NCBI GenBank assembly: GCA_029559475.1
Contig: JAKQBN010000055.1
Coordinates: 92,031-156,030 of the forward strand
DNA from: a bacterium
Lineage (GTDB): Bacteria; UBA4055
Direction: 5' to 3'
DNA: 64,000 nt
Notes under the pieces: model-generated
What the model saw: the letters and a program-made list of their open reading frames with translations, nothing else
Databases searched by the model: none
What the model was told of the DNA's origin: nothing
Shown here: piece by piece, positions 4,864-64,000 of the stretch
Numbering within the stretch: position 1 is the stretch's first letter
Layout: each line of letters starts with the position of its first letter
Translations under genes and position numbers: made by a program

Positions 4864-4864
4864 T

Positions 4865-6789: not shown

Positions 6790-7004
6790 TTTATGGTCTC
6801 ATATACTTGATTACTTAATTATACAACAGTGTGAAATATATGTTCTTAGCGGTTAAAATCATAATTAAATATTGCGAAAGAACGCTTTTTGAGTGTGAAA
6901 CGTTTGAATTAGGTAATGAAATGAATTAAAAATATTCCTTGACTGACTTTATATTTAAAAATATATTCACAAAAAAAATCAACTAAAATAGAACGGAGCA
7001 TGAA

Positions 7005-10963: not shown

Positions 10964-11107
10964 TGTTACTCCGTAAATAATGTTCAAATTAAGTAAAATC
11001 CCGTTCAATTGCAATTTGAAAAACTTTTTTTAATAATTAAGAATTTCCTGTTTGCATTATCGGTTAATGTCAAATATATTCCTTTAAATAAAACTCAAAG
11101 GCTTATC

Positions 11108-11515: not shown

Positions 11516-11536
11516 TAATATAAACGAGTAAAGCCA

Positions 11537-15917: not shown

Positions 15918-17035
15918 AATATGATAAACTTATAGAAATACTTGAGACAACTCATTCAGATATGCAGTATCAGGCTTTCAGATCCGTTGATATTGCGTTA
16001 ATTATCCGTAACTGGCTGTTCGGATTTTATCTGGTCGAATATGAGCAGAACGGTGAAGACAGGGCTGAATACGGCGCAAGGCTGATTGAAAATATCTCCC
16101 AAGATTTAAGAAACAAAGGTGTCAAAGGCGTTTCACCCACAAATCTGAAAAAGGACAGAGAGTTTTATATTGAGTATAAACAAATTCGACAGACAGTGTC
16201 CGTCGAATCTTTGGTTCAGCCTCAAAAAAAAGCAACCTCAGGCACAAATATCCAAATTCGACAGTCAGTGACCGTCGAATTGGCAAAACAATTCAAATTA
16301 AGCTGGACGCATTATGTTAGTCTGTTGACCATTGACGATATAAATGAAAGAAAATTCTACGAGATAGAATCGATAAACAATTCGTGGGGCGTAAGAGAAC
16401 TCAAAAGACAGATCGCTTCTTCGTTGTATCAGCGGCTTTCAGTCAGTAAGAATAAGGCTAAATTGAAACAGCTGTCTCAAAAAGGTCAGATCATTGAAAA
16501 ACCTGAAGATTTCATAAAAGATCCGTTTATACTTGAATTTGCCGGAATAAAAGAAAAGAGCCGGTACTCAGAATATGATCTTGAAACAGCGCTTATAAAC
16601 AAACTGGAAATGTTCCTTTTAGAGCTTGGCAAAGGCTTTTTATTCGAGGCAAGACAGAAAAGATTCACATTTGACGATGACCATTATTATGTTGATCTCG
16701 TATTTTACAACAGACTGCTTAAATGTTATGTTCTGATTGATCTCAAGCGCGATAAACTTACGCATCAGGATCTCGGTCAGATGCAGATGTATGTGAACTA
16801 TTTTGACAGATATGTTAAGCTTAAAGATGAAAATCCGACAGTCGGGATCGTATTGTGCCACAGGAAAAATGACGCTTTAGTAGAACTCACACTCCCTGAA
16901 AATTCTAATATATTCGCTTCAAAATACAAATTATATTTACCGACAAAGGAAGAATTAAAACGGCAGCTTGTAAAAGAAATAGGTATGGTCAAAGAAGAAA
17001 TGGCACTTTACGGAACTCAGCGGAAAGGAGAATAA
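15914..17035 (+). CDS. DUF1016/YhcG-like PD-(D/E)XK nuclease-domain protein embedded in the Type I R-M operon
   Basis: ATG at 15914 overlaps the hsdM stop (ATGA). The C-terminus carries a PD-(D/E)XK-like core (YYVDLVFYN ... YVLIDLKRD) and the N-terminal helical DUF1016_N-like region. Confidence 0.65.
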   Translation: MKYDKLIEILETTHSDMQYQAFRSVDIALIIRNWLFGFYLVEYEQNGEDRAEYGARLIENISQDLRNKGVKGVSPTNLKKDREFYIEYKQIRQTVSVESLVQPQKKATSGTNIQIRQSVTVELAKQFKLSWTHYVSLLTIDDINERKFYEIESINNSWGVRELKRQIASSLYQRLSVSKNKAKLKQLSQKGQIIEKPEDFIKDPFILEFAGIKEKSRYSEYDLETALINKLEMFLLELGKGFLFEARQKRFTFDDDHYYVDLVFYNRLLKCYVLIDLKRDKLTHQDLGQMQMYVNYFDRYVKLKDENPTVGIVLCHRKNDALVELTLPENSNIFASKYKLYLPTKEELKRQLVKEIGMVKEEMALYGTQRKGE

Positions 17036-48816: not shown

Positions 48817-50255
48817 TTTGAACCTCCGACTCTGATTTTTTTGAACCTTGCCGTTGCAGCTCCGTGCGTCATCCTCGCTGTTTGAGGAGGCTGTCCCTTT
48901 CCGCAGTTCGTAACTCCGAAATCCTTCCAGTACCTTGCGTCACAGATAGCGTCGCATGAATTCCAGAATTCAGGATTGCATGATTTGTACAGAACATCCT
49001 TTAGAGGCCTTACTTTCTTTCCGTTCTTTATCTCCCAGAACATATCGCCGCCGAACTGGAAATTCACCCTGTGCTGATCTATCGAAAAAGATCCTCTTCC
49101 TTCAATGTAAATACCGTCTTCGGTATCTGCTATAAGCTCCTGCGGAGAAAGCAGTTTTTTACCGGGTTCTAGATAAAGGTTGGGTATTCTGTTTATAGGA
49201 AAATCATAATAATATGTAGCCCTGTTACAGCCTCTGCTCATGTTCTCGCCAATAAAAGGTGCGGTGTCTCTTGTTGTTCCGTATTCATTAAGTATCCCGT
49301 CCTTTATAATATACCATTTCTGGCCTGGAACACCGTCGTCATCGTATCCTGCCGTAGCAAGTCCGAAAGAAAGAGTGTTGTCGCCCACAAAATTTACTAT
49401 CTCTGAGCCGTAGCGGTATTTTTTGAGTTTTTCGGGAGTCGCGAACGATACACCTGCGTAATCAGCTTCCCATTTTAACACCCTGTCAAGCTCGGTAGGA
49501 TGCCCGACACTTTCGTGCATGGTAAGTCCGAGGTGGTTCGGATCAAGAATTAAGTCTCTTCTTCTGATCTCTCCCGGTTCATCAGCTTCAAGTTTGATGA
49601 TAGCTTCTTCTGCTATCTGAACCGCTTTCTGTACAAGATTCATTTTGAGCACATGTTCCCATCCTGCTCCATATCCGCCTTCGTCAAATGATCTCGTCTG
49701 AGAATCTTTATCGTTAACAGCGGTTGCAGATATCATTGGATTAATATAATAAGTATTCGAATGAATAACCGAACCGAGTGTTGATGCGAAATACTTATCG
49801 TCGTTCAGCATGTCAAGCATGAAAAATGCTCTTTTGATCTTAGAATAATTCAGAAGTGTTTTATTAACTTCCAGCATAAGATCAACTTTTTCGGAAAGCG
49901 GAACCTTAAAAGGGTCAATCTGTATCTTTGTAGAATAAGAATCGATATAGCCCCTTTCATGTGCAAGTGTTAACCCTTTGCCTTTTTTTATCTTTGCTGA
50001 AAGCTCCGCCACTTTTACCGCTTTTTCTACGGTCTTCTTTACTTCGTCATTTGAAAAAATGTTTGAATGTGCAAAACCCCATGCTCCATTCTTCATTACT
50101 CTGATCCCGTAGCCGTGCTCGACATTCCTGCTGGTGTTCTTCAGGCTCAGGTCCATAAGAAAAATAGTCTCCCTTGTGGTTTTCTGAATTCTGATGTCCG
50201 CATATTCGGCTCCCATACTCTGCGCGTGATTCAAAGCTGTTGAGAGATGATCCAT
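48813..50255 (-). CDS. tldD: TldD-family metalloprotease
   Basis: 480 aa with the HESVGHPTE motif and C-terminal GGDMFWE / CGKGQ region typical of TldD. Confidence 0.8.
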   Translation of the reverse strand: MDHLSTALNHAQSMGAEYADIRIQKTTRETIFLMDLSLKNTSRNVEHGYGIRVMKNGAWGFAHSNIFSNDEVKKTVEKAVKVAELSAKIKKGKGLTLAHERGYIDSYSTKIQIDPFKVPLSEKVDLMLEVNKTLLNYSKIKRAFFMLDMLNDDKYFASTLGSVIHSNTYYINPMISATAVNDKDSQTRSFDEGGYGAGWEHVLKMNLVQKAVQIAEEAIIKLEADEPGEIRRRDLILDPNHLGLTMHESVGHPTELDRVLKWEADYAGVSFATPEKLKKYRYGSEIVNFVGDNTLSFGLATAGYDDDGVPGQKWYIIKDGILNEYGTTRDTAPFIGENMSRGCNRATYYYDFPINRIPNLYLEPGKKLLSPQELIADTEDGIYIEGRGSFSIDQHRVNFQFGGDMFWEIKNGKKVRPLKDVLYKSCNPEFWNSCDAICDARYWKDFGVTNCGKGQPPQTARMTHGAATARFKKIRVGGSK

Positions 50256-50357
50256 TTATGCCTCCGCATAGTTTTTTTTAACTAAAATTAAAAATACACA
50301 ATAAAACGAATTATATCAAACAATTAATGATAAAAGGCATTAAAACAGAGATGAAAT

Positions 50358-50383
50358 AAAAAAAGCCCGGATGAACGGGCTTT
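50358..50383 (-). terminator. rho-independent terminator at the end of the V-ATPase operon
   Basis: On the minus strand: aaagcccg-ttcatc-cgggcttttttt, immediately 3' of the subunit K gene. Confidence 0.6.
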
Positions 50384-50402
50384 AGAAATGAAATAATTGT
50401 TT

Positions 50403-50918
<516 letters not shown>

Positions 50919-52718
50919 TTATGCATTCTTTTTAAACGGTTTATACTCTTTTCCTCCGCCTGTCCATCCGGCGTTCTTATAAAATTCCACGAAAGTCAGC
51001 CTCATCGGATGAACGAAAGATCCCAGACTGCATAGCAGAAGGTTTCCCGTATGACCCACAAGCAGAAAGATCAGCCATACCAGCCAGCCTACATACGGAA
51101 TGTCCAGGAATATCTCCCCGATGTTATTTATAACTAATCCTAAAATCGATCCGGACAGCCCGAGCGCGAACAGCCTGATATAAGATAATGTATCGCCGAA
51201 TACTCCTGTTATGTTGTTGTACATATCCCATATTCCGAGACCGAGTCTTTTGAAAATATTTCCGGTAGTGCTGAAAAGCATGGCTGCAGCAAGACCGATC
51301 CATACAAAGATCATTGCAATGGATTTTATTTCAGGAAAAGCTCCTGCAGTTATTCCGGCTATGATCATCATAACCCAGCCCAGTGTCGGCAGAGCTGCTA
51401 TAAAGCTGTTTTGCTTTGTAATGTTGAAAGCTTTGATCAGCAGACCGAATATTATCTGTATAAGTCCTATTGCGATCGAAAGATTGAACATTTCGTCCGC
51501 TGTCAGGAAAAGCCCTTTTGTTTCAGCTGATTTTATAATACTGGATTCTGCAAGAGTTACGCCGAAAATAGTTCCGGTTATCGCACCCGCTATCACAGTA
51601 GCTAATCCCAGGAACTGAACGAGCGTCAGTATCGCCCTCATGTCAGCTTTTTTGATCTTGAATTTAGCAGCAGTGGCTGCGACAATCATTACGACTCCGT
51701 AACCCGCATCGCCCAGGCATAAACCGAAGAACATCATATAGAATGGAGCGAAGAATGCGGTCAGATCTATCTCTGTGTAGGAAGGCAGCGAGAACAGCCT
51801 GGCTATAGGTTCGAATAACTTTGCGAATCCGTTGTTTTTCAGTAGGATCGGCACTTTACCCATCTCTTCGGAGGAAGGTTTGTCCGCAATATAAACAAGT
51901 CCTTCTTCATCAAGATACTCAAGCAGCGTCTGTTCCTTTTCCTCAGGTATCCACCCCTGAACTATCTTAACGAGATCCTCAGAAACGGACACGGAGTTCA
52001 TTCCGGCTTTTTCCAGCATGGTTTCATTTATAAGGTCGTTCATAGCCTTCTCCACTTCTCCGGAAGAATGCCATGCAAAACCGTCGAGAAGATCATCTAT
52101 CTCTTTCTTCCTTACAAGCTCGGATTCCCTTTCTTTTATCAGCGAACCCAGAGTACTTTCAGGCAGTTTGATATCCTCTAATTCAGGAAAATTATTCACG
52201 TCTTTTCTGCTAAGAACTATGAAATTGGCGGTGTTACCTGAAGTAGAAATTATTTCGCATATATATTTTTCTTTGAAATCTTCAGTCAGTTTATCGATTC
52301 CGAGCCTGTAGAATCTTATGTTCAGGCCTGACATCTCGAGCTTTTTCTTATCTTCCTGTCCGAATTCGCCCCACGGTTCAAGAGCTTTAATATCCCTGTT
52401 AACTGATATTAAATGCTGATTAATCTGCTCGTACTCGGTCTGAAGCTTAACTATGGCATCATAAACCGATTTTCCTTTGCCTTGATGATCCGGTTCTTCC
52501 GGAACGATTCCGGACGCTTTCAGTGTTTTTATCCTTCTTCTCAAAAATTTCAGTACAGCTTCTTTCTGAGATATTCTCAAAAGATTTGTCTTCTGGATGT
52601 CGTTCGTCTCCGCTGTTTCAATTATGTGCAGAAGTCCCAGATCCTGAAGTTTTGACAGAAACGGTGTCAGATCTTTGTGATAAAGAAGTATCGAGTATTT
52701 TTTCATAGGCACTATCAT
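50919..52718 (-). CDS. atpI: V-type ATP synthase subunit I (a)
   Basis: 599 aa. Soluble N-terminal coiled-coil half and a C-terminal multi-TM half with conserved R in RLFALGLSG. Confidence 0.85.
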   Translation of the reverse strand: MIVPMKKYSILLYHKDLTPFLSKLQDLGLLHIIETAETNDIQKTNLLRISQKEAVLKFLRRRIKTLKASGIVPEEPDHQGKGKSVYDAIVKLQTEYEQINQHLISVNRDIKALEPWGEFGQEDKKKLEMSGLNIRFYRLGIDKLTEDFKEKYICEIISTSGNTANFIVLSRKDVNNFPELEDIKLPESTLGSLIKERESELVRKKEIDDLLDGFAWHSSGEVEKAMNDLINETMLEKAGMNSVSVSEDLVKIVQGWIPEEKEQTLLEYLDEEGLVYIADKPSSEEMGKVPILLKNNGFAKLFEPIARLFSLPSYTEIDLTAFFAPFYMMFFGLCLGDAGYGVVMIVAATAAKFKIKKADMRAILTLVQFLGLATVIAGAITGTIFGVTLAESSIIKSAETKGLFLTADEMFNLSIAIGLIQIIFGLLIKAFNITKQNSFIAALPTLGWVMMIIAGITAGAFPEIKSIAMIFVWIGLAAAMLFSTTGNIFKRLGLGIWDMYNNITGVFGDTLSYIRLFALGLSGSILGLVINNIGEIFLDIPYVGWLVWLIFLLVGHTGNLLLCSLGSFVHPMRLTFVEFYKNAGWTGGGKEYKPFKKNA

Positions 52719-53314
52719 GCGCTTGCCTCCATCATCTGCCGGTTCTTAACGATCTTCTGGGATGATTTGGACAGATTGTCCTCATCCTCCATAAACCTTT
52801 TGATCTTCAGAATCGCTTCCTGGAATCCGGGTATCTGAACTTTTTCGTACAGATTTACTTTCTGAGTGGTCTTTCTTCTCGCTTTTTCAAGGAGCTCCAT
52901 TTTTTTGGTAAATACTTCTCTTTCAACGGCGATCTTAACCAGCTCTTTCAAGATCTCTATTCCGTCATAATACCACACCGGCGATTCGAACATACTGAAT
53001 TCCTTAACTGTAAACTCGATATTTTGAAGTAAAGGCGTCGATACTCCGGCTATCTTTTTCTGGCTGAGGACTACATTTTCCACCCTGATAAGCGAAGGTT
53101 TAAATTCGTTCCAAAGTCCCGACATCCCGGAATATTTCAGCATTTCCGCTTCTAAAAGCGAATCCAGCTCCTGCACTTTGTCTTTAGCCTTCTTGACCTC
53201 CATCCTCAAAGCTGACTCCTTGTTCTTGATGGTCGGCAGGGCTCTCTGTCTTATCTTGAGCTGTTTACCCAAAAGCTGCATCGAGATCTTGTTATATTGA
53301 AATTTTATAGCCAT
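52715..53314 (-). CDS. atpD: V-type ATP synthase subunit D
   Basis: 199-aa coiled-coil protein. N-terminus MAIKFQYNKISMQLLGKQLKIRQRA fits the subunit D pattern. Confidence 0.8.
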   Translation of the reverse strand: MAIKFQYNKISMQLLGKQLKIRQRALPTIKNKESALRMEVKKAKDKVQELDSLLEAEMLKYSGMSGLWNEFKPSLIRVENVVLSQKKIAGVSTPLLQNIEFTVKEFSMFESPVWYYDGIEILKELVKIAVEREVFTKKMELLEKARRKTTQKVNLYEKVQIPGFQEAILKIKRFMEDEDNLSKSSQKIVKNRQMMEASA

Positions 53315-53328
53315 TTTGACTCTCGGAT

Positions 53329-54651
53329 TTAGTTTTTGGGCCAGTATTTAGCTACCAGAGCTTCTTTTATTCCTATCTCTGACTTATTGAAGTATTTAGC
53401 GAACAGCCTCCATCCTGTATCAAGCATGGCATCTATCTCGATGTTGATATCAATAGCAAGCAGTTCTCTCGAATATTCCTTTGCGTATTTAAGTGTCCTT
53501 TCGTCATAATCGTTCAGGTCGAAACCGTTCTCGAGCTTAGTTTTCGCGTTTGCCGCGTCTGCGAAAAGTCTGATAGCGGCGTTCATAACCTGAGGATGAT
53601 CTTCTCTTGTCTGTTTTCCGATCACAAGTTGTTTCAGCCTTGAAAGTGATCTGAAGGGATCGATAATGACCTTTCCTATGTCCGTATCTCTTCTTAAGAA
53701 CAGCTGCCCTTCGGTAATATATCCTGTGTTGTCGGGTATTGCGTGAGTGATATCTCCGCCTGACAGAGTTGCAACAGCTATGATAGTGATAGATCCGCCT
53801 TCAGGGAACTGAACCGCTTTTTCATAAAGCTTGGCGAGATCAGAATATAAAGATCCGGGCATACTGTCCTTTGACGGTATCTGGTCCATCCTGTTAGAAA
53901 CTATACTTAAAGCGTCGGCATAGAGCGTCATGTCGGTAAGAAGTACGAGCACCTTCTGATGTTTTTCGTGAGCGAAGTATTCAGCTGTGGTAAGAGCCAT
54001 ATCCGGAACGAGAAGCCTTTCCACCGGCGGGTTCTCTGTAGTGTTGATAAAGCTGATGATCCTGTCGAGTGCGCCTGCATTTTCAAATATATGCTTAAAG
54101 AAAAGATAATCGTCGTTGGAAAGTCCCATACCGCCCAGAATGATCTTGTCGGCTTTCGCTCTTAAAGCGACCATGGCCATAACCTGATTGAAAGGCTGGT
54201 CCGGATCGGCGAAGAAAGGTATCTTCTGTCCTGTAACAAGCGTGTTGTTAAGGTCGATCCCGGCTATTCCCGTGGGTATAAGTTCCGAAGGCTGCTGTCT
54301 TCTCACGGGATTTACCGAAGGGCCGCCTATCTCTATTTCTTTTCCTTCTACAGACGGACCGCCGTCTATAGGATCGCCGTAGGCGTTGAAAAACCTTCCG
54401 GCAAGTTCGTCGGATACTTTGATCGTCGGCGCTTTTCCCATAAAAACGACTTCAGCGTTCGTAGGAATACCTTCCGTTCCGGAGAATATCTGGAGAGTTA
54501 CGGTATCGCCCTGTATCTTGACCACCTGAGCTAGTTTTCCGTTAACTGTGGCTATCTCTTCGTTGCCCACACCTTCCGCTTTGAGAGAACAGGTGGCTTT
54601 TGTGATCTGAGTTATCTTTGTATATATTTTCTGAAAAGCCGTAGTTTCCAT
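53329..54651 (-). CDS. atpB: V-type ATP synthase subunit B
   Basis: 440 aa, non-catalytic A/B family (TGQKIPFFADPDQPF region; degenerate P-loop). Confidence 0.9.
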   Translation of the reverse strand: METTAFQKIYTKITQITKATCSLKAEGVGNEEIATVNGKLAQVVKIQGDTVTLQIFSGTEGIPTNAEVVFMGKAPTIKVSDELAGRFFNAYGDPIDGGPSVEGKEIEIGGPSVNPVRRQQPSELIPTGIAGIDLNNTLVTGQKIPFFADPDQPFNQVMAMVALRAKADKIILGGMGLSNDDYLFFKHIFENAGALDRIISFINTTENPPVERLLVPDMALTTAEYFAHEKHQKVLVLLTDMTLYADALSIVSNRMDQIPSKDSMPGSLYSDLAKLYEKAVQFPEGGSITIIAVATLSGGDITHAIPDNTGYITEGQLFLRRDTDIGKVIIDPFRSLSRLKQLVIGKQTREDHPQVMNAAIRLFADAANAKTKLENGFDLNDYDERTLKYAKEYSRELLAIDINIEIDAMLDTGWRLFAKYFNKSEIGIKEALVAKYWPKN

Positions 54652-56409
54652 TTAAACCGCCTTTCTTTCGTTTAATTTATTGTTGAGCTGCTGTAGATAA
54701 TTATTGAATTTTTCAGATTTGAACTCAGAATAGTTCATCTGCTTGAAAATATTTATTACGGCCTTAAAGAAAGGGTTGATCTCTTCGAAGGATGTGAATT
54801 TATATTTCATATTATAAACTTTGAGCACTTCATCAAGCATAAACTCCTGCCTTTCAAAAGGTGTAGATTTGTCGATCTTATCGAAAGCATCCTGCTGAAG
54901 TATCACAAAATCGAGCACTTCGGCTTTCCAGTACCTTTCATGATAATCGATAGGAACACCGTCATCTCCGAGAATATTGATCTGCTCGGAAGCCTCTTTT
55001 CCTCTAAGAAGGATATCTTTCGCTAAAGTGACCTTTTCCACCCAGTCAGGAGCGATAGTTTTCTTAAGATATTCCTGTATCTCAGGATATTCAAGATATT
55101 TTGAATACGAATCGATCGGGTCGATCGCCGGATATCTTTTGCTGTCAGCCCTTTCCTGATTCAGCGCGTAAAAACATCTCGCCGCTTTTTTCGTGGATTC
55201 GGTAACCGGCTCTTTTAAGTTTCCTCCTGCAGGTGAAACCGTTCCTAAAAAAGTTATCGAACCTGTTGCGCCGTTGTTTAAATAAACAGAACCGGCTCTC
55301 GAGTAGAAATTCGATATGATCGCGGGAAGGTCCATCGGGAACGCGTCCGGTCCCGGAAGCTCTTCCATCCTGTTCGACATCTCCCTAAGAGCCTGAGCCC
55401 ATCTGGAAGTTGAATCTGCAAGAAGCAGAACTTTAAGTCCCATTGACCTGTAATATTCTGCAAGGGTCATTCCTGTATATACTGATGCTTCCCTCGCTGC
55501 TACGGGCATGTTGGATGTGTTACAGATGATGGTAGTTCTTTCCATCAGCTTTCTACCCGTTCTCGGGTCTTCAAGCTCCGGGAACTCTGTGAAGATCTCT
55601 ACTACCTCATTAGCCCTTTCTCCGCATGCCGTGACGATGATCATATCAGCTTCGGCCTGCTGGGAAACAGCGTGCTGCAGAACTGTCTTTCCGCATCCGA
55701 AAGGCCCCGGAATAAATCCGGTACCGCCTTCTGCCAGAGGATTCAGTGTGTCTATAGTTCTTACGCCGGTTTCCATTATTTTGAAAGGCCTCGGTTTTTC
55801 TTTATATGCTCTGATCGGGATCTTTACCGGCCATTTCTGCATCATGGTAACGTTATGGTCCTTGCCTTTTTCATCTGTAACTACAGCGACAGTATCTTTC
55901 GTTCTGTACTTGCCTTTTAGGGCAACGCTTTTTACGATGAACTGTCCTTCGAATTTGAACGGAAGCATAATTTTGTGCGGCATCCATCCTTCTGTGACTT
56001 CTCCGAGCCAGCTTCCCGCTTCGACTTTATCCCCCGCCTTCGCGATCGGAGTAAAATCCCATTCAGCGTCAGGATCAAGAGCTTCCGTGTATTCGCCTTT
56101 CTTTAGAAATACGCCCTTCATTTTGTTCAGATCGTTCTGAAGCCCGTCGTAATTCTTCGACAGGATACCCGGCCCGAGCGTCACTTCGAGCATGTGGTCT
56201 TTAAATTCGGCTTCTGTTCCTACCTTAAGACCTCTCGTGCTTTCGAAAACCTGAGTGAATGCTTTGTTCCCGAGCACTTTTATGACTTCAGCCATCAGAT
56301 CTACGCCTTTATGCCTGATAAAACAAATCTCGTTTTGTGAAACAGGCCCGTCGGCTTCGATGACGACCATGTTGGCTATAATACCGGTGACTTTTCCTTT
56401 TGTAGCCAT
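54652..56409 (-). CDS. atpA: V-type ATP synthase catalytic subunit A
   Basis: 585 aa. P-loop GPFGCGKTV and the non-homologous insert region typical of A subunits. Confidence 0.9.
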   Translation of the reverse strand: MATKGKVTGIIANMVVIEADGPVSQNEICFIRHKGVDLMAEVIKVLGNKAFTQVFESTRGLKVGTEAEFKDHMLEVTLGPGILSKNYDGLQNDLNKMKGVFLKKGEYTEALDPDAEWDFTPIAKAGDKVEAGSWLGEVTEGWMPHKIMLPFKFEGQFIVKSVALKGKYRTKDTVAVVTDEKGKDHNVTMMQKWPVKIPIRAYKEKPRPFKIMETGVRTIDTLNPLAEGGTGFIPGPFGCGKTVLQHAVSQQAEADMIIVTACGERANEVVEIFTEFPELEDPRTGRKLMERTTIICNTSNMPVAAREASVYTGMTLAEYYRSMGLKVLLLADSTSRWAQALREMSNRMEELPGPDAFPMDLPAIISNFYSRAGSVYLNNGATGSITFLGTVSPAGGNLKEPVTESTKKAARCFYALNQERADSKRYPAIDPIDSYSKYLEYPEIQEYLKKTIAPDWVEKVTLAKDILLRGKEASEQINILGDDGVPIDYHERYWKAEVLDFVILQQDAFDKIDKSTPFERQEFMLDEVLKVYNMKYKFTSFEEINPFFKAVINIFKQMNYSEFKSEKFNNYLQQLNNKLNERKAV

Positions 56410-56412
56410 CTT

Positions 56413-57258
56413 TTACCCTTCTATTCTATTTTTTTCTTTTTCTTCATCTGTGATACCCGACTCTTTTCCCTGCTTTTCAAGTTCTCTGATGAACCTTTCG
56501 AAAAGTTCCTTTCCGGTCTCGGGATCGAGCTTGATCCATCTTTCGATGATCGTTACCTTAATGAAATGCACAAGCAGTTTTTCTATCGTAAAATAATTCC
56601 ATACGGTCTTTTCATCTAACCAGTCCCACTTAAAAAGATCTATCGCTTTTTCCCTTGCGAGAAGATCTTTTATTTCGAATATTGAACTCAGCCTGTCTAT
56701 GTATTCAACGCTGTCAGAAAGTCCGAAATCCTTTAAACTGCTTGATTTTAGGGCGGATGATACTTCGTTTATTTTAAGAATGTATTTTTCTGCATCCAGA
56801 CCGTGCTTTCTGACATTTAAGGCCGCAAGAATGTTCCTCATGTTTATTTCGAGCTCGAAATAGCTTTTGAGAAACTCATTGTCGCATTCGAGCAGGTGAT
56901 CGATATAGGAAGTTACAAGTTTCTGCTTTAATTCATCTCTTTTTTCGATGTCCTTTTCAAAAGCTTCTATAAATTCCCGAATGTAAGAGACCGCCTCATC
57001 CGGCTCTTCGATCATTTGTTCGATCTGGGCGCGGGTGTAGTTGCCGCTCTCGAATGCTTTCACATCGAAACCGCAAAGGATCTTATACAGATTACGATTA
57101 TCCTGCTTCAGCCTGAAAAGCTCGAAATAAGAGTAATCCTTTTTGTGAAGGAACTCTTTCATGTCCGAAAGCATCTCCGCCGAACCGTAAGACAGCTTTG
57201 AGTCCTCGATCGTTATATTAGGCAGCCCTGCGACAAGAAAGTAATAATTCCTGGCCAT
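56413..57258 (-). CDS. DUF2764-family protein (putative V-ATPase accessory/C-like subunit of Bacteroidetes-type operons)
   Basis: 281-aa helical protein in the canonical position between subunits E and A, as in Bacteroidota V-ATPase operons. Confidence 0.55.
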   Translation of the reverse strand: MARNYYFLVAGLPNITIEDSKLSYGSAEMLSDMKEFLHKKDYSYFELFRLKQDNRNLYKILCGFDVKAFESGNYTRAQIEQMIEEPDEAVSYIREFIEAFEKDIEKRDELKQKLVTSYIDHLLECDNEFLKSYFELEINMRNILAALNVRKHGLDAEKYILKINEVSSALKSSSLKDFGLSDSVEYIDRLSSIFEIKDLLAREKAIDLFKWDWLDEKTVWNYFTIEKLLVHFIKVTIIERWIKLDPETGKELFERFIRELEKQGKESGITDEEKEKNRIEG

Positions 57259-57875
57259 TATTTTCCTCCGAACAGCATTTCGGCCGTCTTCGGTCTCATA
57301 TATTTTTTAAAGAAGTTCTCGAAATCTTTTTCAGTAAAACTCAGTTTGTAGCTTCCGTCAGCCGGCCCTATTTTGAATCCGTTTTCCATGTTCGCGTCGG
57401 GAACTATGTTCAAACCGCCGTTAAGCAGCGTTCTTACTCCTGATTTAAGATGATTTTCAAGCTCTGTTCTGTGCTCGGCCGGTATCGACACTTCGAGATC
57501 CATTCCTTTCGAAGGGTCGGAAAAGAAATTCTTTACAGATATTTCAATTATCTTTTTCATAAAATCTTTATCTGAAAGCGTGTTCTTGACCGCTTCAGAA
57601 ACGACTTTTGTTGTGATCAGATCGGTAATTTTCTGTTTTACATCGCTTACCGACTGATTCACTGACATTTTCATTTCCGTTCTGCCGTTATTTATTATCT
57701 CCGCAGCGCTGTTTTTTGCGTCAGATATGATCTTTTCCGCATCAGCTTTTGCTTTTGAAAGTGTTTCCTCAGCCGTTTTCTTTGCTGTACCGATTATCGA
57801 ATCCGCTTCGATCTTTGCTTTTTCGACGCCTTCTGAATAGATCTTTCCTGTCAGTTCCTGGAGTTTGTTGTCCAT
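57258..57875 (-). CDS. atpE: V-type ATP synthase subunit E
   Basis: 205 aa. N-terminal long helix (LQELTGKIYSEGVEKAKIEADSII...) and a globular C-terminus. First gene of the operon. Confidence 0.75.
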   Translation of the reverse strand: MDNKLQELTGKIYSEGVEKAKIEADSIIGTAKKTAEETLSKAKADAEKIISDAKNSAAEIINNGRTEMKMSVNQSVSDVKQKITDLITTKVVSEAVKNTLSDKDFMKKIIEISVKNFFSDPSKGMDLEVSIPAEHRTELENHLKSGVRTLLNGGLNIVPDANMENGFKIGPADGSYKLSFTEKDFENFFKKYMRPKTAEMLFGGK

Positions 57876-57980
57876 TATCTGTCTCCGGTATGTTTTATAT
57901 TAAATATTATATTCAAATTGATCATATCCTGTTTTTAACTTTGGAAATTTATCCTTTTTAATATGATTGTCAAGTTGTTT

Positions 57981-58688
57981 TTATTCTAAAAAATCATAAT
58001 TAAAATATGCTTCGAACAGATCTCTGAAAGAAGAGAGGGATGTGCTTATATGAATCGGTACTGTCTTGGCAAAAATGTCGAGAGTTACTATCGCATTGAT
58101 CGCGGAATCCGTTTCCGAAGCCGCTCTCAGCCTGTCTGCGACCGCAGAATTAACGATACTTAAATTTTTGTATATCTTATTAAGTCCCTGCAGATCGATC
58201 TCGTATTTTTTACCTTCTTTCGCCAGAAAATACTGGGCCAGAAGATACATCGATGTAGCTCTGAATATAGTATTCTCTTTATCAGCCAGCGGAAGATGAA
58301 AATATGCCATCGGTTTAAAAAAGGCAAGGTGAGGACAGCCTGAAGCTGCGTTGACGAGACCCATCATTGCGCCGACAGCCTTTTGTACAGTTGTATCCTG
58401 CGATATTTTTTTGCCGTCGATCACGACTTCGAGATATACTTTTTCAAATGACTTTAAACCGTCAAAGTATTTTACCAGGTTAACGAGCGAAACGGCAAGG
58501 GGACAGTGTCTTGTAAAGGCGGATTTTAAGGGGCAGTTCGGGCATTTGCAGAAATCGAGCTCTGTCCAATCCGGCAGGTGATCTTCGGTTCTGTTTTCTG
58601 TCAGCCTGATCTTGTCTTTATCCCACTGAAAACTGAAATCTTTTTCTTTACCGTCTGCGAATATGAATTTGTAATCAATTGTTTTCAA
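57981..58688 (-). CDS. hypothetical Cys-cluster protein upstream of the V-ATPase operon
   Basis: 235 aa. FCKCPNCP...RHCP...SGCPHL cysteine pattern. No family assigned. Confidence 0.45.
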   Translation of the reverse strand: MKTIDYKFIFADGKEKDFSFQWDKDKIRLTENRTEDHLPDWTELDFCKCPNCPLKSAFTRHCPLAVSLVNLVKYFDGLKSFEKVYLEVVIDGKKISQDTTVQKAVGAMMGLVNAASGCPHLAFFKPMAYFHLPLADKENTIFRATSMYLLAQYFLAKEGKKYEIDLQGLNKIYKNLSIVNSAVADRLRAASETDSAINAIVTLDIFAKTVPIHISTSLSSFRDLFEAYFNYDFLE

Positions 58689-58736
58689 CTTATTTCTTCC
58701 CGGGCTGAAAATTTCCTGCCCCAGTATTCCGAATAA

Positions 58737-59372
58737 TTATAAATGAGCCCTGCACTGCATCGAGAACAGATCCTGGCTCGGTTTGTGCCCTTTTACCTTC
58801 GGATCGAACCTTTTATCGAACTCCTCTGCCGCAGCTTTGTCGAATTCATAAGCCGGGCTGTTGTAGAACTTCCAGCTGTGTCCTTCAAAAAAGCCCTTTT
58901 TCAGTTCAAGCACGAGAAGTCCCAGCGGAAAGCTTCCGTCATTAGAGCTTATGTTGTAATCCTTACCGTTCTTAAAACCATGCTTGCAGTAATTGTGCGG
59001 ATCTCCGTAAATTATAACAGCCGGATATCCTTTTTCCCTCGCCAGCCTGACCGTATGCCTGATAAGCATTGCTCCCACTCCGTTCCTCTGATATCCGGGA
59101 AGAACGCTTACCGGGCCGAAAGTCGCCGTTTCTGTCTTTTCGCCTTTTTCATTCTCGACATAAGATCTTGTGTACATTATGTTCCCGATTACCTTACCCG
59201 AGCATTCAACGACGAAATCGAATTCTTTGATAAAATCGGGATGATCCCTTAATATATGCGCCAGATAATGTTCGTCGCAGCCGGGAACATAAAGGTTCCA
59301 GAAAGCCTCGCGAGTCAGCTCCTCTACAGCTCTGTAGTCAGATTCGGTTTCCGTTCTTAAAGTTGTTATCAA
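58737..59372 (-). CDS. GNAT-family N-acetyltransferase
   Basis: 211 aa. Acetyl-CoA binding motif LPGYQRNGVGAMLI (Q/R-x-x-G-x-G/A). Confidence 0.75.
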   Translation of the reverse strand: MITTLRTETESDYRAVEELTREAFWNLYVPGCDEHYLAHILRDHPDFIKEFDFVVECSGKVIGNIMYTRSYVENEKGEKTETATFGPVSVLPGYQRNGVGAMLIRHTVRLAREKGYPAVIIYGDPHNYCKHGFKNGKDYNISSNDGSFPLGLLVLELKKGFFEGHSWKFYNSPAYEFDKAAAEEFDKRFDPKVKGHKPSQDLFSMQCRAHL

Positions 59373-59497
59373 TAGTTTCCCCCATGTTTTTCAAAACGGA
59401 TGCAATATACGAATAATGTCCGGTCTTTTCAATTTATATTTCTTGCATTTGTTCTTCAGCTCTGTTATTTTGCCTATAAGTTAAAAAAGGAGCGTAA

Positions 59498-60232
59498 ATG
59501 AAGTATCTGATATTCTTTGTCGTCTTAGCTGCAGCTGCGACCCAAAGTCTTTTTTCGCAATTCGGTGTAGACGCGGAAACAGGCATACTCGCTACCACTT
59601 ACAATAACGTGAGAATAGCCGGATATACGGGAACAAAGTTCTCGCTCTGCGACGATCTGGAGGATGATCCCGTTTTCTTTTACCGTATCAGGCTTAATTA
59701 CCTTTTAAAAGAAAAACACTTCTTTTCTCTCCTATACGCGCCTCTGACAATTAAGTCAGAAGGTTCTCTTGATAGAAACATTTATTTTATGGAAACATCA
59801 TATCCGGCCGGAACTGAGCTGGACGCCAGCTTCAGATTCAATTCATACAGGCTGACCTACCGCTATGAATGGATAAACAGTGAAAATATAGAATTCGGAA
59901 TAGGCTTTACCGCAAAGATAAGAGATGCGGAGATCAAACTTAAGAGCGAACATATCTCCAGAAGCAAAAAGAATGTCGGTTTCGTGCCTATCATCAATTT
60001 CAGGTTCCTCTGGAAGATCACAGATAAGATCGGATTTCTTACAGAAGGTGACGCTCTCGCTGCTCCTCAGGGCCGTGCTGAAGATGTTCTTGCCGCAGTT
60101 ACTTACAGAACCGGAGATCATCTGACCGTCAAGGGCGGCTACAGGATCCTTGAAGGCGGCGCTGACAACGATGAAGTATATACTTTCTCGCTTATAAATT
60201 ACGCTGTACTGGGATTTATATACAATTTCTGA
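59498..60232 (+). CDS. outer-membrane beta-barrel protein (OmpA-like barrel family, putative)
   Basis: Signal peptide MKYLIFFVVLAAAATQSLFSQ, alternating amphipathic beta-strands, and a C-terminal aromatic residue (..IYNF). Confidence 0.55.
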   Translation: MKYLIFFVVLAAAATQSLFSQFGVDAETGILATTYNNVRIAGYTGTKFSLCDDLEDDPVFFYRIRLNYLLKEKHFFSLLYAPLTIKSEGSLDRNIYFMETSYPAGTELDASFRFNSYRLTYRYEWINSENIEFGIGFTAKIRDAEIKLKSEHISRSKKNVGFVPIINFRFLWKITDKIGFLTEGDALAAPQGRAEDVLAAVTYRTGDHLTVKGGYRILEGGADNDEVYTFSLINYAVLGFIYNF

Positions 60233-60255
60233 ACATAATTAACACGGAGCGTAAA

Positions 60256-61350
60256 TTGAAAAAATATTTAATTATGCTGATCCTTTTGAGTTTAATAGCA
60301 GCATCCGGAAGTGCAATTGTCACAAAAAACGAAATTAAGGCAGGTCTGTCCGGAACAGCCAGTTTCGACCTGCCGGGAGACCGTTCCGGTTATCTAAGCT
60401 TTAACTCGCCGGAATTATCGTATCAGTTCGAACTTAAACTGAATAATAATTTTTTCTTTTTAGTTAATGCTAAAGCCGGTTACTTCAGAAATCCCGATAA
60501 AAGAGCTGAATTCAGTTCCTTCGAGTGGCTAAATTTTTCTGTACTAAGATGGCCTGAACAAGATACAGACAGGTTTAGCTTTGAAGCAGCACCCGGACTG
60601 AAGGCGAGATTCGGTGATTTTTCTGCCGGTTTTCATTTCAGACACATTTATGACCATGAAATATGGTATGCGGCGATAGACGAAACAACTCCCTTATATC
60701 CTGCAGGTACAGGAAGAACTCTTGATGTCATAACGGATTATGAATACTTTGATTACGGTTTTAATCTCAGCTATGGAAAAGATAATTATTTTATTGAAGC
60801 ATATTTAAAGGACAGGTACAAGAGCGATTACGATACAGATTTTGAAAACAGCGACAAAAAAGAAACAAAACAGGATAAACCTAATTCTACTGAGCGCACC
60901 GATTATCCTTTTATTTACGGGATAAGAGGGTCATATTCGATGCGTGTCAGCGAAAATTCAGAAATGAACGCTTCGGTGATGTTCGAAATGTTCGAAGACA
61001 ACAGTGACAATTATAATAACAAGCTCGACACGGGATTAAATTACACAGCATCATTAAGCCCCGTTTTCAGTTTTTCGCTTGGCGGTACATACGAGCAGTA
61101 CTTCTATCAGTATGGCAAAGTAACTTTCCCTGAAAATGCCGATCCTGAAGATCCTGAACTTGAAGTATTAGAAGGAGAAGATTCTTTTACCTGTGTAAAA
61201 ACGTTTGGTAATATCACATATACACCGTTTACCAATTTTGATGTATATTTATACTCAGGCTATGATGCATATTTTAATACCGATGATATTTCCGACAAAA
61301 TAAGTATCGGTCTCGGATGCGATTACACATTTGATTTTGCATCTCGATAA
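60256..61350 (+). CDS. hypothetical exported/outer-membrane protein
   Basis: Signal peptide MKKYLIMLILLSLIAASGSA. Y/F/D-rich strand pattern. Confidence 0.45.
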   Translation: MKKYLIMLILLSLIAASGSAIVTKNEIKAGLSGTASFDLPGDRSGYLSFNSPELSYQFELKLNNNFFFLVNAKAGYFRNPDKRAEFSSFEWLNFSVLRWPEQDTDRFSFEAAPGLKARFGDFSAGFHFRHIYDHEIWYAAIDETTPLYPAGTGRTLDVITDYEYFDYGFNLSYGKDNYFIEAYLKDRYKSDYDTDFENSDKKETKQDKPNSTERTDYPFIYGIRGSYSMRVSENSEMNASVMFEMFEDNSDNYNNKLDTGLNYTASLSPVFSFSLGGTYEQYFYQYGKVTFPENADPEDPELEVLEGEDSFTCVKTFGNITYTPFTNFDVYLYSGYDAYFNTDDISDKISIGLGCDYTFDFASR

Positions 61351-61372
61351 TTTCTTACTTAATACTCTCTAT

Positions 61373-61400
61373 CAGCTTCAATCCGGCTTTATCCATTTTC
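61373..61400 (-). repeat. 28-bp direct repeat copy 1: remnant 3' end of an ORF6N-type gene (encodes ...KMDKAGLKLIESIK*)
   Basis: cagcttcaatccggctttatccattttc matches cagcttcaaaccagctttatccattttc at 62004-62031 with 2 mismatches. That copy is the 3' end of the gene at 61983-62957. Confidence 0.65.
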
Positions 61401-61414
61401 TGCCTGATCACTTA

Positions 61415-61785
61415 TCAACTGCCCATGTGTGCTTCGAGCCAGTCCAGTGTACGTCTGACGGTCTCCTGTCGGCATAGACTTAGAGCGTGATCGCCATCCG
61501 GGAACTCATACCATTCAACAGTCGGTACGGCTTCTATTAAAGGCGGATAATGGTGTGTCGGAAAAATATCGTCTTTTCTGCCGGTCAGCATAAGTATTGG
61601 ACGGTTTAAGAGGTGCTCCCCTACCGATTCTATCGAAGGAAGCGCTTCATACTGCAATTTCAGCTCCTCGCCTGACACGCCGTAGGGCGCGGTCCCTGCC
61701 CTGATGCCCTATAAAATCCGCCGAGGATCTTACAGCCTTTGGAAGTAAGTGTAATTCCATCAAGTCCGGCTTCATATATGCTCAT
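61415..61785 (-). pseudogene. alpha/beta-hydrolase (dienelactone-hydrolase-like) pseudogene: N-terminal and C-terminal fragments joined by an internal deletion and frameshift. The patch is GC-rich.
   Basis: N-fragment MSIYEAGLDGITLTSKGCKILGGFYRASGQGPRPTA (61785 downward) runs into a stop. The -1 frame continues GIRAGTAPYGVSGEELKLQ...PILMLTGRKDDIFP...FPDGDHAL, a C-terminal His region. The nucleophile-elbow segment is missing. Local GC is markedly higher than the flanks. Confidence 0.6.
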
Positions 61786-61982
61786 ATTGTTCCCTTCCTT
61801 TTTACTCTTAGCAATTTGTTATAGGGTTAGTTTAATTCATCTGTTCTTCCATTAACCGGAATTTACTCTTTACACTGTTTAAAATCAAGAGTTTTACAAA
61901 CATTCTACTTAAGACCTCGACAATGCTGCTTAATTACCTTTCTTCAATCACTCAATCCGAATTTAAATAACATACCGTACAA

Positions 61983-62957
61983 TTAAAAGTTTATCTTATC
62001 CAACAGCTTCAAACCAGCTTTATCCATTTTCGTGAATCCGAACAGCTTTCTACCCAAATCCTTCAACGATGCCCCGAAGTGGTAAACAATCTCACCGTCA
62101 ATAATAATAAACCTGTCGTGAATATCCTTTGTCTCTTTGACCTCGATCGGAAAATACTGTTCACCAAACTTCTTTAAATCGAGCCTGAACTGATCTGATA
62201 TCGATTTCGTAACGATCCTAACCTGCACACCCTTCTTTATTTTCGTCAGATGAATCAGCACTGTATCATCAACATAATTATCTAGGATAACGATAGATCT
62301 TTCCGCGCTTCTGAACAGATCGGAAACGAACTTGTATGCATCGAAAATCTGACCTTCAAAGAATATTCCCTGCTCCGGTACGCTATTCTTACTTTCCATG
62401 ATCTCAAAAACCTGATCGATCCTCTTGTCGGTTTCTATCTGCTTCAACTCTACCTTGTCCAGCCTCTGAAATATCAGCCCGTTAATCTGAATGAATTTCC
62501 GCATTGCTACAAATGCATTAATGATCCTGATACTTGTTTGTATTGCTGTTGAGCTTCTTAATACCGCGGAAAGCATAGAGACACCCTGTTCTGTGAAAGC
62601 ATAAGGCAAATACGTCCTTCCTCCTTTTATCATCTTTATTGAATTATGCTTTGCCAATATCGAGGTCACAATTTGTGACCTCGATATTAAACTTTCATTT
62701 TTTTCGTGATCGATAGATAAGACCAATATTTCATATTCTTCATATGATAATTGAAAACAGAAATTTTCGGGAAACCTTTCAAAATTTCTTTTAACAGCCT
62801 GATTCAGAACTTTCGTCTCTACCCCATACAACTCAGCCAGATCTCTGTCCAGCATCACCTGAAATCCCCTTACAGAAAATATCCTGTCCCTTATACTCTC
62901 CTCGAACTTCACTAACTCACCTTTCGACATACGCACTCCGCCATTACTTTTACGCAA
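61983..62957 (-). CDS. ORF6N-domain (KilA-N/Bro-N-like DNA-binding) protein
   Basis: N-terminal RGFQVMLDRDLAELYGVETKVLNQAVKRNFERFPENFCFQL is the ORF6N signature. ~320 aa. Its 3' end is duplicated at 61373-61400. Confidence 0.65.
   Translation of the reverse strand: MRKSNGGVRMSKGELVKFEESIRDRIFSVRGFQVMLDRDLAELYGVETKVLNQAVKRNFERFPENFCFQLSYEEYEILVLSIDHEKNESLISRSQIVTSILAKHNSIKMIKGGRTYLPYAFTEQGVSMLSAVLRSSTAIQTSIRIINAFVAMRKFIQINGLIFQRLDKVELKQIETDKRIDQVFEIMESKNSVPEQGIFFEGQIFDAYKFVSDLFRSAERSIVILDNYVDDTVLIHLTKIKKGVQVRIVTKSISDQFRLDLKKFGEQYFPIEVKETKDIHDRFIIIDGEIVYHFGASLKDLGRKLFGFTKMDKAGLKLLDKINF
62004..62031 (-). repeat. 28-bp direct repeat copy 2 (3' end of the ORF6N-domain gene)
   Basis: See copy 1 at 61373-61400. 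Confidence 0.65.
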
Positions 62958-63045
62958 TATACGAAAAGATGGCGTTCATCTAATGACACTCATCTATTTT
63001 TTATAAAAATATTCTAAAAATTAATAAATAAAGATCAGATCATAT

Positions 63046-63936
63046 TTAATCAGATTTGCTCTTAAACAGCATGAACTCGGAAATAGCCACAGATGACTTC
63101 CAATCATCAGGAACATCTGCTTCCCAGTGCGCCTCCAGCAGCCTTACTTTGACAAATCGCCCCCGGGAAGGACTGATTTCAAATACCGTCGGTTCAGCTC
63201 TGTCAATATATGTGCAGACCTGTCCGCCGGCTGTTTTGAAACACATCGGCGAAGGACCTTCAACTTCACCAGTCTCAACCTCCTGCCATGGACCGACGGA
63301 AGACTCACTCACTGCGACTCCGAGCCTTCGCACAGAATTATTACCTCCGCCTGTACCGCGATTGTCAGTATGCGGCGCGAATACTACGATACGGTCAAAT
63401 ATCACAGAATTACCAAGATCGATAACCGCTTCGGGCACCGTACCCGTTAGCGGAGCTGCCCAGGACTTAAATCCGTCACCGTCAATAAGAGCTTCACTTC
63501 CCTGCTTTGCGGAATCAGGCAGTACCGAAATTATCGTACTCCCCGCACATAAATTCTGACTCCATTCAGTAGGCTGAACAAAATGAAAATCCTCAGGCTT
63601 CGGCTGAAGCTGAACGATCCGTGCTTCGATCTCATCAATCGAAAGTTCGTTTGAAGCTTCATTGTCAATTGATGTCATATTACCTCCTTCTTTACTGATA
63701 ATCAGCAATGCTAAATACGGTATAGCGAAGAAAACGATTATCATTATTTTAAAGATTCCGAGAAAACCGTACATAACAAGACTTATCTGTTCTCTATTCA
63801 GCTCAGGAAAGAAAATCTTCTGACTTTTTATTACAAGCTCCGGAGCCGATTTCCAAGCAAGAGTTATAAAAATCATCAGCCCGAAACCAATAACGGTTCC
63901 CCACAAAAAGAATTCTCTGAGTATGCTTAAATCCAT
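63046..63936 (-). CDS. membrane-anchored protein with a C-terminal F5/8 type C (discoidin)-like domain
   Basis: Two N-terminal TM helices (AT-rich coding). C-terminal EALIDGDGFKSWAAP...VIDLGNSVIFDRIVVF...GRFVKVRLLEAHWE...AISEFMLF fits the discoidin-domain pattern. That part is encoded in GC-rich DNA. Confidence 0.5.
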   Translation of the reverse strand: MDLSILREFFLWGTVIGFGLMIFITLAWKSAPELVIKSQKIFFPELNREQISLVMYGFLGIFKIMIIVFFAIPYLALLIISKEGGNMTSIDNEASNELSIDEIEARIVQLQPKPEDFHFVQPTEWSQNLCAGSTIISVLPDSAKQGSEALIDGDGFKSWAAPLTGTVPEAVIDLGNSVIFDRIVVFAPHTDNRGTGGGNNSVRRLGVAVSESSVGPWQEVETGEVEGPSPMCFKTAGGQVCTYIDRAEPTVFEISPSRGRFVKVRLLEAHWEADVPDDWKSSVAISEFMLFKSKSD

Positions 63937-64000
63937 AATATCCTCCGCTTATTTATTGTAATATACAAAATTTATCGACAATTTCACAATTCAACCTCAG

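Follow-up and report, generated by a model that had tools for sequence, protein, structure and literature searches.

A 28-nt direct repeat in a bacterial defence island as the probable remnant of a second ORF6N/PDC-S05 gene

The locus considered here raises the question of why the final codons of one gene are found twice, 631 bp apart, with other DNA between them. The window, i.e. the whole stretch of DNA that was analysed, comprises 64,000 nucleotides (nt) of a contig from a bacterium of the UBA4055 lineage (assembly GCA_029559475.1, contig JAKQBN010000055.1, positions 92,031 to 156,030). Near its right end it contains an ORF6N-domain gene on the minus strand, assigned to the candidate defence family PDC-S05, and the 3′ end of this gene recurs downstream as a near-perfect direct repeat of 28 nt. 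The downstream copy is probably a relic, namely the last 14 codons and the stop codon of a decayed second ORF6N/PDC-S05 paralogue in a variable, recombining defence island, and not a duplication made by an insertion. The repeat itself is likely to reflect the shared ancestry of two paralogous gene ends, without a function of its own. The intact gene and the two copies are situated as follows.

61983-62957, minus strand: ORF6N-domain gene, 324 codons from a TTG start, or 315 codons from the ATG at 62930
61990-62031, minus strand: repeat copy B, true 3′ end of the intact ORF6N gene (...TKMDKAGLKLLDKI...), the stop codon of the gene being at 61983-61985
61355-61400, minus strand: repeat copy A, probably what is left of a second ORF6N/PDC-S05 gene, namely its 14 terminal codons with the stop (KMDKAGLKLIESIK, then stop)

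The direct repeat had been noticed in an earlier reading of the same DNA (the original prediction) and was borne out. The copies CAGCTTCAATCCGGCTTTATCCATTTTC (61373-61400) and CAGCTTCAAACCAGCTTTATCCATTTTC (62004-62031) were found to be identical at 26 of 28 bases, both mismatches being synonymous third positions (GCT/GCC for Ala and GGT/GGA for Gly). When the window was searched with the 28-mer at three or fewer mismatches, just two sites were found (62004-62031 exactly, and 61373-61400 with two mismatches), while 100 shuffles that preserved dinucleotides gave 0.00 matches on average. The comparison of the region with itself, which the prediction had proposed as a check, showed in-register similarity over 42 nt at 81% identity (61359-61400 against 61990-62031), containing identical blocks of 9 nt and 15 nt, the 15-nt core being GCTTTATCCATTTTC. 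The similarity was found to stop sharply to the right of 61400 and 62031, with the boundary at 61400/61401, and past ...KL the C-terminal tails of the intact gene and the relic differed.

On the minus strand, the copy at 62004-62031 was found to be the true 3′ end of the open reading frame (ORF) 61983-62957 (...FGFTKMDKAGLKLLDKINF, then stop), and the copy at 61373-61400 was read as ...KMDKAGLKLIESIK followed by a stop codon at 61355-61357. The assignment of the repeat to the final codons of the ORF6N gene was thus right, with the relic beginning at 61355 and not at 61358, and, as the gene is encoded by the minus strand, the copy called downstream is the one at the lower coordinates. The C-termini of three other family members (P0030, P0048 and P0053) were found to be ...KMDKAGLKLIEKIK, identical to the relic at 13 of 14 residues. 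In reading frame, stop position and consensus C-terminus the relic conforms to the family, and it therefore reads as the end of another family member, which agrees with the earlier claim that a second ORF6N-type gene end lies downstream. The differences between the relic and the intact gene (synonymous ones, followed by a divergent tail) also appear to resemble those between paralogues. Two in-frame stops were present directly upstream of the relic (GS-stop-stop-VIRQ-KMDK...), forming part of the end of a hydrolase ORF, and the relic stop was found 4 nt from the stop of a convergent outer-membrane-protein gene. No other fragment of the family was seen in the window, which holds one intact ORF6N gene and the 14-codon relic.

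The same arrangement was found in eight further assemblies, at about 96% identity in five (L001-L005) and at 100% in three (L098-L100), and is therefore no assembly artefact; one of the latter (GCA_035431505.1, contig DAOMIT010000023.1) matched the last 12 kb of the window exactly. In the comparison of related loci, likewise proposed earlier, these were the only relatives found to carry the locus, and the next relative, L013, was found to lack the region. Elsewhere in the fetched loci, the nucleotide matches of the repeat were all at ORF6N-type gene ends or at relics of such ends, and no spread of the repeat over many unrelated sites was seen.

Relics of the same family were found in other genomes, cut at other codons. 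In L006, a 24-codon 3′-end relic (16059-16130) was present 13 nt past the stop of an unrelated leucine-rich-repeat (LRR) gene and 3.4 kb downstream of the last intact copy of an array of ORF6N genes. In L096 (12527-12595) and L097 (11470-11538), the last 23 codons follow an N-terminal fragment of RhuM in a different frame, and these 3′-end relics still had 96% amino-acid identity to an intact gene end. The chimera (L096 12250-12595 and L097 11184-11538) was 86% identical at the nucleotide level over 372 nt between two different genomes; it is plainly an internally deleted gene, and the decayed chimera was evidently copied or inherited as a unit. N-terminal relics were also found (L093 8882-8983 and L097 10891-11184). 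The 3′-end relics were cut near codon 309 (window), near codon 297 (L006) and near codon 300 (both L096 and L097). Codon identity among 15 paralogues was 0.72-0.76 at the 3′ end, a level also reached at the N-terminus and around residues 188-235; the 3′ end is therefore not unusual, and no sign of a dedicated DNA site was seen there.

The family was also found to form arrays. The array of L006 contained three ORF6N genes in tandem, 16-17 nt apart, that of L093 contained four ORF6N genes interspersed with or followed by Bro-N, peptidase, sigma-factor-like and RhuM genes, and that of L094 contained four ORF6N genes downstream of a type ISP restriction enzyme. The same-strand arrays comprised three to five PDC-S05 genes of ORF6N or RhuM type (L006 10001-12691, L093 213-11139 and L094 9113-13600). 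The array contigs were from metagenomes; their ORF6N proteins resembled those of metagenome-assembled genomes (MAGs) labelled Delongbacteria, Bro-N and unrelated genes were interspersed, and type ISP restriction or toxin-antitoxin genes adjoined the arrays. A full-text literature search on ORF6N, judged by titles and the openings of abstracts, gave no published account of bacterial chromosomal PDC-S05 arrays with unrelated genes and relics.

The DNA between the two copies was found to be a patchwork, with the following features from left to right.

61401-61414, no strand: linker of 14 nt, from the hydrolase stops (TGA TAA) to the relic
61415-61684, minus strand: 5′-truncated alpha/beta-hydrolase relic with an 87-codon ORF (61415-61678) and about 52% G+C
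61685-61785, minus strand: G+C-rich stretch without detectable homology, overlapped by a 41-codon ORF in another frame (61660-61785) with a good ribosome-binding site
61786-61982, minus strand: AT-rich non-coding spacer, 29-31% G+C, with no difference between the two strain types
61860-61912, minus strand: promoter-like motif of 53 nt, 87% identical to L096 1817-1869 (blastn E 4e-11)

The hydrolase piece was found to have a weak Pfam match to Abhydrolase_1, and a full-length homologue was seen in L007. In a tblastn search with P0122 (208 residues), residues 120-207 were aligned to 61684-61421 at 55% identity, with nothing upstream. The last 88 residues only are thus present; the half with the GxSxG nucleophile elbow is missing, and the gene is therefore truly truncated. 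The stretch at 61685-61785 may represent decayed remains of the hydrolase, or else the point at which its 5′ part was cut away. The contigs with the nearest hydrolase homologues have 54-61% G+C and the window has 41%, but native genes of the window also have 50-53% G+C, so composition alone is weak evidence for a foreign origin. P0123, a protein of 91 residues from another organism, was considered as an independent truncation at the same point and rejected, as its gene is full-length apart from one in-frame stop, behind which the 91-residue ORF lies.

In the spacer, folding was no better than in shuffled sequence (z = +1.5), and neither a match to Rfam at gathering score nor a terminator-like site was found in the spacer or the relic. 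The 53-nt motif was present as a single copy both in the window and in L096, where, in another ORF6N island, it comes directly after an unrelated alpha/beta-hydrolase gene. It may be read from its letters as a putative promoter (TTGATT, 17 nt, TAAATT).

The histories of these parts were found to differ when the window was compared with the L001 strain type. Over 53400-64000, divergence formed a mosaic on a scale of 0.1-3 kb, with blocks that were either near-identical or 5-17% different, which indicates frequent homologous recombination in the population. The synonymous divergence (dS) was 0.01 for the V-type ATPase (V-ATPase) genes, 0.27 and 0.17 for two outer-membrane-protein genes and 0.23 for a DUF6868 gene. 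The stretch 61776-63100 (about 1.3 kb, with the spacer, the ORF6N gene and the region upstream of it) contained 2 differences, and the relic contained 1 difference in 46 nt. The hydrolase ORF contained 30 differences in 261 nt (11.5%), of which 21 were synonymous and 9 non-synonymous, giving a dS of 0.46 and a ratio of non-synonymous to synonymous divergence (dN/dS) of 0.10 that rests on two alleles, the only ones on record (synonymous excess, binomial P = 8e-8). In the other two frames of this ORF, dN/dS was 1.45 in one and not computable in the other, where synonymous differences were zero. The DUF6868 / F5-F8-type-C gene (63046-63936, minus strand, 296 codons) had the highest dN/dS of the neighbourhood (0.27), and in the L001 type it was found to be split into ORFs of 81 and 210 codons by a 1-nt indel at 63694.

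The ORF6N gene and the spacer are near-identical between the strains whereas the hydrolase is diverged, so the ORF6N block reads as a recent import. The comparison suggests that this block, rather than the hydrolase fragment, may be the recent arrival, and the earlier view of the hydrolase piece as the inserted newcomer is probably wrong. The description of that piece as a pseudogene was right as to truncation (residues 120-207 of 208 are kept) and not as to a gene long dead, given the low dN/dS. A synonymous excess in 61415-61678 is surprising for a fragment without the half that bears the catalytic serine. The favoured reading is that the gene worked at full length until recently, and that the truncating block then spread by homologous recombination in the flanks. 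The pattern would also fit an 87-codon ORF still in use, or patches converted from an unseen full-length homologue; a database search for such a full-length donor gave none above 55% identity.

On the favoured account, a second gene of ORF6N/PDC-S05 type would once have adjoined the outer-membrane-protein gene. Arrays of the family share long near-identical DNA, in which recombination and deletion, also with incoming DNA, would replace and truncate the occupants. In a first step, the older ORF6N-type gene would have been reduced to its tail as the hydrolase came to lie upstream, by deletion or replacement. The hydrolase would then have been kept for long as a working gene. In a last step, the present ORF6N gene and its spacer would have arrived, removed the 5′ half of the hydrolase and passed from strain to strain through homologous recombination in the flanking DNA. 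This sequence of events is inferred, as is truncation by deletion or replacement. Read 5′ to 3′ on the minus strand, the order is the intact ORF6N gene, the spacer, the 5′-truncated hydrolase and the 5′-truncated ORF6N relic. Both leftovers lack their 5′ parts and point in the same direction, with the least-diverged intact gene upstream, which fits successive replacement from the upstream side. If the proposed order is true, a full-length hydrolase gene upstream of ...CACATGGGCAGTTGATAAGTGATCAGGCAGAAAATGGATAAAGCC would be expected in some genome.

Several points weigh against this account. No genome in an earlier state was found, whether with an intact gene ending in ...LIESIK and a stop abutting the outer-membrane-protein gene or with a full-length hydrolase upstream of the relic, and the history therefore rests on indirect evidence. 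The relics of the window and of L006 both start about 13-14 nt after the preceding stop, which would rarely be expected from random deletion end-points. The relic and linker together (61355-61414) contained 3 strain differences, fewer than the hydrolase, which is maybe just short-tract mosaic. The low dN/dS of the hydrolase could mean that the 87-codon ORF is still used, which would weaken the last step.

The strongest competitor, though an unlikely one, holds that a segment of about 631 bp (62016 to 61401), carrying its own tail (...LLDKINF, then stop), the spacer and the hydrolase fragment, recombined into a single resident gene at the shared core and displaced ...LIESIK and its stop downstream, either in the manner of integrative elements at icd or tRNA genes or by homology-facilitated illegitimate recombination. 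The copies do have the blocks of 9 nt and 15 nt in common and end in the same codon register (61400 and 62031), the relic stop 4 nt from the convergent stop is where the original gene would naturally have ended, and recombination between the repeats would give back an intact gene. However, neither an integrase nor a transposase was found in the 631-bp interval, no recombinase family was found among the genes called within 10 kb on either side, and no terminal inverted repeats were found at the ends of the interval. The parts of the supposed insert also differ in history (spacer identical between strains, hydrolase 11.5% diverged), the relics of other genomes are cut at other codons, one of them arising from an internal deletion, and the 3′-end codon identity among the 15 paralogues is not unusually high. 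Were such an insertion the cause, a genome would be expected in which the ORF6N body runs straight into the relic (...CTGTTCGGATTCACGAAAATGGATAAAGCCGGATTGAAGCTGATAGAGAGTATTAAGTAA) and the 631-bp interval is absent. Of the original prediction, which held the interval to be an insertion or a recombination product, a recombination patchwork is supported and an insertion-made duplication is not; the heading under which it was given, a duplicated gene end bracketing an insertion, fits poorly with the lack of an integrase, transposase or terminal inverted repeat and with the differently cut relics elsewhere.

Three specific routes of insertion were considered and rejected. The target-site duplication of a transposon or insertion sequence (IS) was rejected on the size and imperfection of the repeats (28-42 nt), the lack of terminal inverted repeats and the lack of a transposase ORF. 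An integrase att site was rejected as no recombinase was present within 10 kb, and a tRNA-linked island was rejected as no tRNA was found in 50000-64000.

A smaller chance is given to the relic being kept for a function, whether in stopping or signalling transcription where the two genes converge, or as a recombination handle with which ORF6N arrays take up and swap adjacent genes. Its single difference in 46 nt, in a neighbourhood where genes show dS of 0.17-0.46, is in keeping with this, as are the relics of L096 and L097, which remain 96% identical to an intact gene end in amino acids. It is opposed by the lack of a terminator-like hairpin and of an Rfam match at gathering score. A difference-free stretch of 51 nt is marginal at the local rate of 5-7 differences per 100 nt (P about 0.05, a rough estimate), junction codons vary among the relics, and several other stretches of the gene are at least as conserved at synonymous sites as the 3′ end. 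That the match arose by chance, or that it is a short generic motif found at many unrelated places, has next to no probability. The only point in favour of this is that a very large gene family ends in this conserved sequence, whereas the window holds two matches against 0.00 expected, the relic keeps frame, stop position and family consensus, and the other matches in the fetched loci are all at ORF6N-type ends or relics.

The probable source of the relic, i.e. the ORF6N/PDC-S05 family, is represented in the window by the intact gene at 61983-62957. Its product was found to contain an N-terminal ORF6N domain (Pfam, E 1.5e-31) and to match the PADLOC candidate defence family PDC-S05 (PDLC04869) at E 1.5e-113, residues 19-322 being aligned to profile positions 14-300 of 306; by this full-length profile match it is a member of that family. 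The C-terminal half gave a PLDc_2 match of 22.8 bits, under the cut-off of 27, and may be HKD-like, i.e. phospholipase D (PLD)-like. The putative PLD motif region reads H-D-R-F-I-I-I-D...G-A-S-L-K, with Arg where HxK(x)4D...GSxN has Lys. No solved structural homologue of the C-terminal half was found by sequence. More than 8000 homologues below 1e-10 were found in the protein database, many of them from MAGs labelled Candidatus Delongbacteria, often with several paralogues on one contig; the 315-residue product from the ATG start was already on record and the exact 324-residue product was not. A scan of viral contigs with the ORF6N protein gave no relatives. A representative of PDC-S05 from another organism, of RhuM type, protected E. 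coli against T7, T5 and T4, with plating of T7 and T5 reduced about 1000-fold (bioRxiv 10.1101/2024.09.26.614923, preprint). Phage protection is accordingly a candidate role of the window gene, suggested by family membership.

A second feature of the gene, separate from the repeat, is a perfect palindrome of 33 nt inside the coding sequence (window 62656-62688), which folds as RNA with -24.9 kcal/mol (z = -7.4). Of 15 paralogues from related loci, 13 were found to have a perfect palindrome at this codon position, with arms of 7-16 nt. The core was found to be GGTC[A/G]CAA-N-TTG[T/C]GACC, and the outer arms, though different from gene to gene, remain complementary. In 11 of 11 cases, a Ser codon was found to covary at its synonymous third base with the second base of a Val/Ala codon. 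Over four phyla, most family members had the palindrome, with sites besides that of the window at L006 10223-10253 and 12024-12046, L093 421-443, 2833-2857 and 5300-5322, L094 9314-9340, L096 10222-10254, L101 1674-1690, L102 1673-1695 and L104 1719-1745. Plasmid-borne members from three other phyla (Segatella, Legionella and Treponema) carry the palindrome, with a compensated change in the core in Treponema, and the members from Haliovirga and Butyrivibrio had no palindrome at the corresponding position. Two genes were found to read the same palindrome in another frame (..VANCD.. against ..RSQIVT..).

In an alignment of 17 sequences, 13 of 16 pairs changed on both sides, and the inner 11 pairs were paired in every sequence. 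The observed covariation score was reached by none of 500 shuffles, for sequences preselected to have at least 7 paired bases. These changes point to selection, inside the ORF6N gene, on nucleic-acid pairing or symmetry. A second copy outside the usual site was found in L093 (4926-4942, about 100 nt upstream), L101 (1452-1468, at codon 13), L102 (2389-2405, 10 nt after the stop) and L105 (1467-1495, 29 nt upstream). RhuM-type genes contained a related palindrome, TGTCGCAAA-N-TTTGCGACA (L093 about 10098, L096 about 12444 and L097 about 11378). A scan of viral contigs for the core gave at least 120 stretches, many in short ORFs or intergenic hairpins and some terminator-like; any palindromic 17-mer would turn up often in hairpins of this kind, and the scan is therefore of little weight. 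A search of the literature gave no paper with the palindrome sequence, and no link was found between the palindrome and the boundaries of the relics.

The gene that converges on the relic marks the edge of the variable region.

60256-61350, plus strand: putative outer-membrane beta-barrel protein, 364 residues, with a weak PorP/SprF-like match

When this gene was used as a query, no matches were found in genome or metagenome collections. Among 80 V-ATPase A loci, L013 alone was close, with a V-ATPase A subunit 86% identical, and it is the closest genome in the species-representative collection. It was found to lack everything beyond the first outer-membrane-protein gene, the convergent gene included, and continues there with DNA situated about 49 kb away in the window. 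Relative to L013, about 11.0-60.2 kb of the window is inverted, with breakpoints at about 11015-11537 and about 60233-60255; in L013, the gene of window 9782-11014 directly adjoins the first outer-membrane-protein gene. The 23 nt that precede the gene flanking the relic contain the right breakpoint. Window 2431-7004, with four genes, is also missing from L013.

Beyond the end of the window, in L098-L100 (1-9885), an HTH_37 antitoxin-like gene, a 290-residue hydrolase, DUF488 and DarT with NADAR were found on the same strand, and the ORF6N gene is therefore at the edge of a larger variable island. Two radical-SAM/SPASM genes and a glycosyltransferase were also found on that strand, and DarT with NADAR forms a DarTG-type toxin-antitoxin or defence pair. 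The 290-residue alpha/beta hydrolase, about 2 kb past the window end (L100 7205-8077), recurred, whole and in many fragments, at about 95% amino-acid identity in L097 (4631-5497, 6466-6816 and 9557-9889) and L096 (1177-1818, 7647-7929, 9775-9910 and 12066-12146). It behaves like a repeated, recombining module, the ORF6N genes of those islands being only about 70% identical. The truncated hydrolase of the interval was compared with this hydrolase and with one adjoining a Segatella ORF6N gene, and no relatedness was found. That Segatella gene (L101, a plasmid of Segatella hominis), a distant member of the family, adjoins two recombinase genes and the alpha/beta-hydrolase-fold gene, and in L104 (Treponema saccharophilum pTS1) another distant member was found inside a type I restriction-modification operon, in the order methyltransferase, winged helix-turn-helix (wHTH), ORF6N, specificity subunit and Fic. 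The MAG of L100 is labelled 'Clostridiales bacterium'; this label is doubtful, the nearest V-ATPase loci being labelled Bacteroidia or Lentimicrobium and the ORF6N homologues mostly Delongbacteria.

The locus may be compared with several known systems. It resembles the gene remnants of defence islands in having a candidate defence gene with DarT-NADAR and antitoxin-like neighbours, in a gene content unlike that of the nearest genome, and in its recently exchanged defence-gene block within a strain mosaic, with truncated leftovers of earlier occupants. It differs from them in that the leftovers are stacked in one orientation, each without its 5′ part, and in that the hydrolase appears to be still under purifying selection. 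Integrative elements can duplicate the 3′ ends of genes, as prophage e14 does in icd of E. coli and others do in tRNA and tmRNA genes. As in such cases, two co-oriented, slightly different gene ends flank foreign DNA and the upstream copy keeps the gene intact; unlike them, the present locus has no integrase, an interval of only 631 bp, parts with different histories and relatives whose relics are cut elsewhere.

The orphan modules of rhs and cdiA keep a 5′ stretch of homology and a working toxin-immunity pair. Like these, older co-oriented pieces pile up here downstream of an intact member through recombination in conserved family sequence, but just 14 terminal codons are left, encoding nothing useful. 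Iyer, Koonin and Aravind reportedly described in 2002 the multi-copy bro, KilA-N, ORF6N and Rha families with their extensive domain shuffling. The present genes are alike in that the N-terminal ORF6N domain occurs in many tandem or dispersed copies, with modules swapped with RhuM and Bro-N relatives. A bolder idea, of low probability, is that conserved blocks of ORF6N/PDC-S05 genes (the 3′ end and the palindrome) serve as recombination handles, which would assemble same-strand arrays, capture neighbours and push older occupants downstream; this would be an integrase-free cassette exchange with the relic as its footprint.

As for the annotation of such loci, the 87-codon hydrolase ORF should not be called a working enzyme. 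The relic itself is ordinary genomic debris of a known kind, and the wider interest lies in the PDC-S05 arrays and the intragenic palindrome. PDC-S05 genes build large, relic-rich tandem arrays in these uncultured bacteria, and the palindrome, kept by compensatory changes in ORF6N genes of several phyla, is a candidate regulatory or recombination site. On the favoured account, the site next to the outer-membrane-protein gene would have had at least three successive occupants, namely an ORF6N-type gene, a hydrolase and another ORF6N-type gene. The PDC-S05 candidate defence genes would thus turn over by recombination and leave truncated predecessors behind, which may help in reading the history of defence islands.

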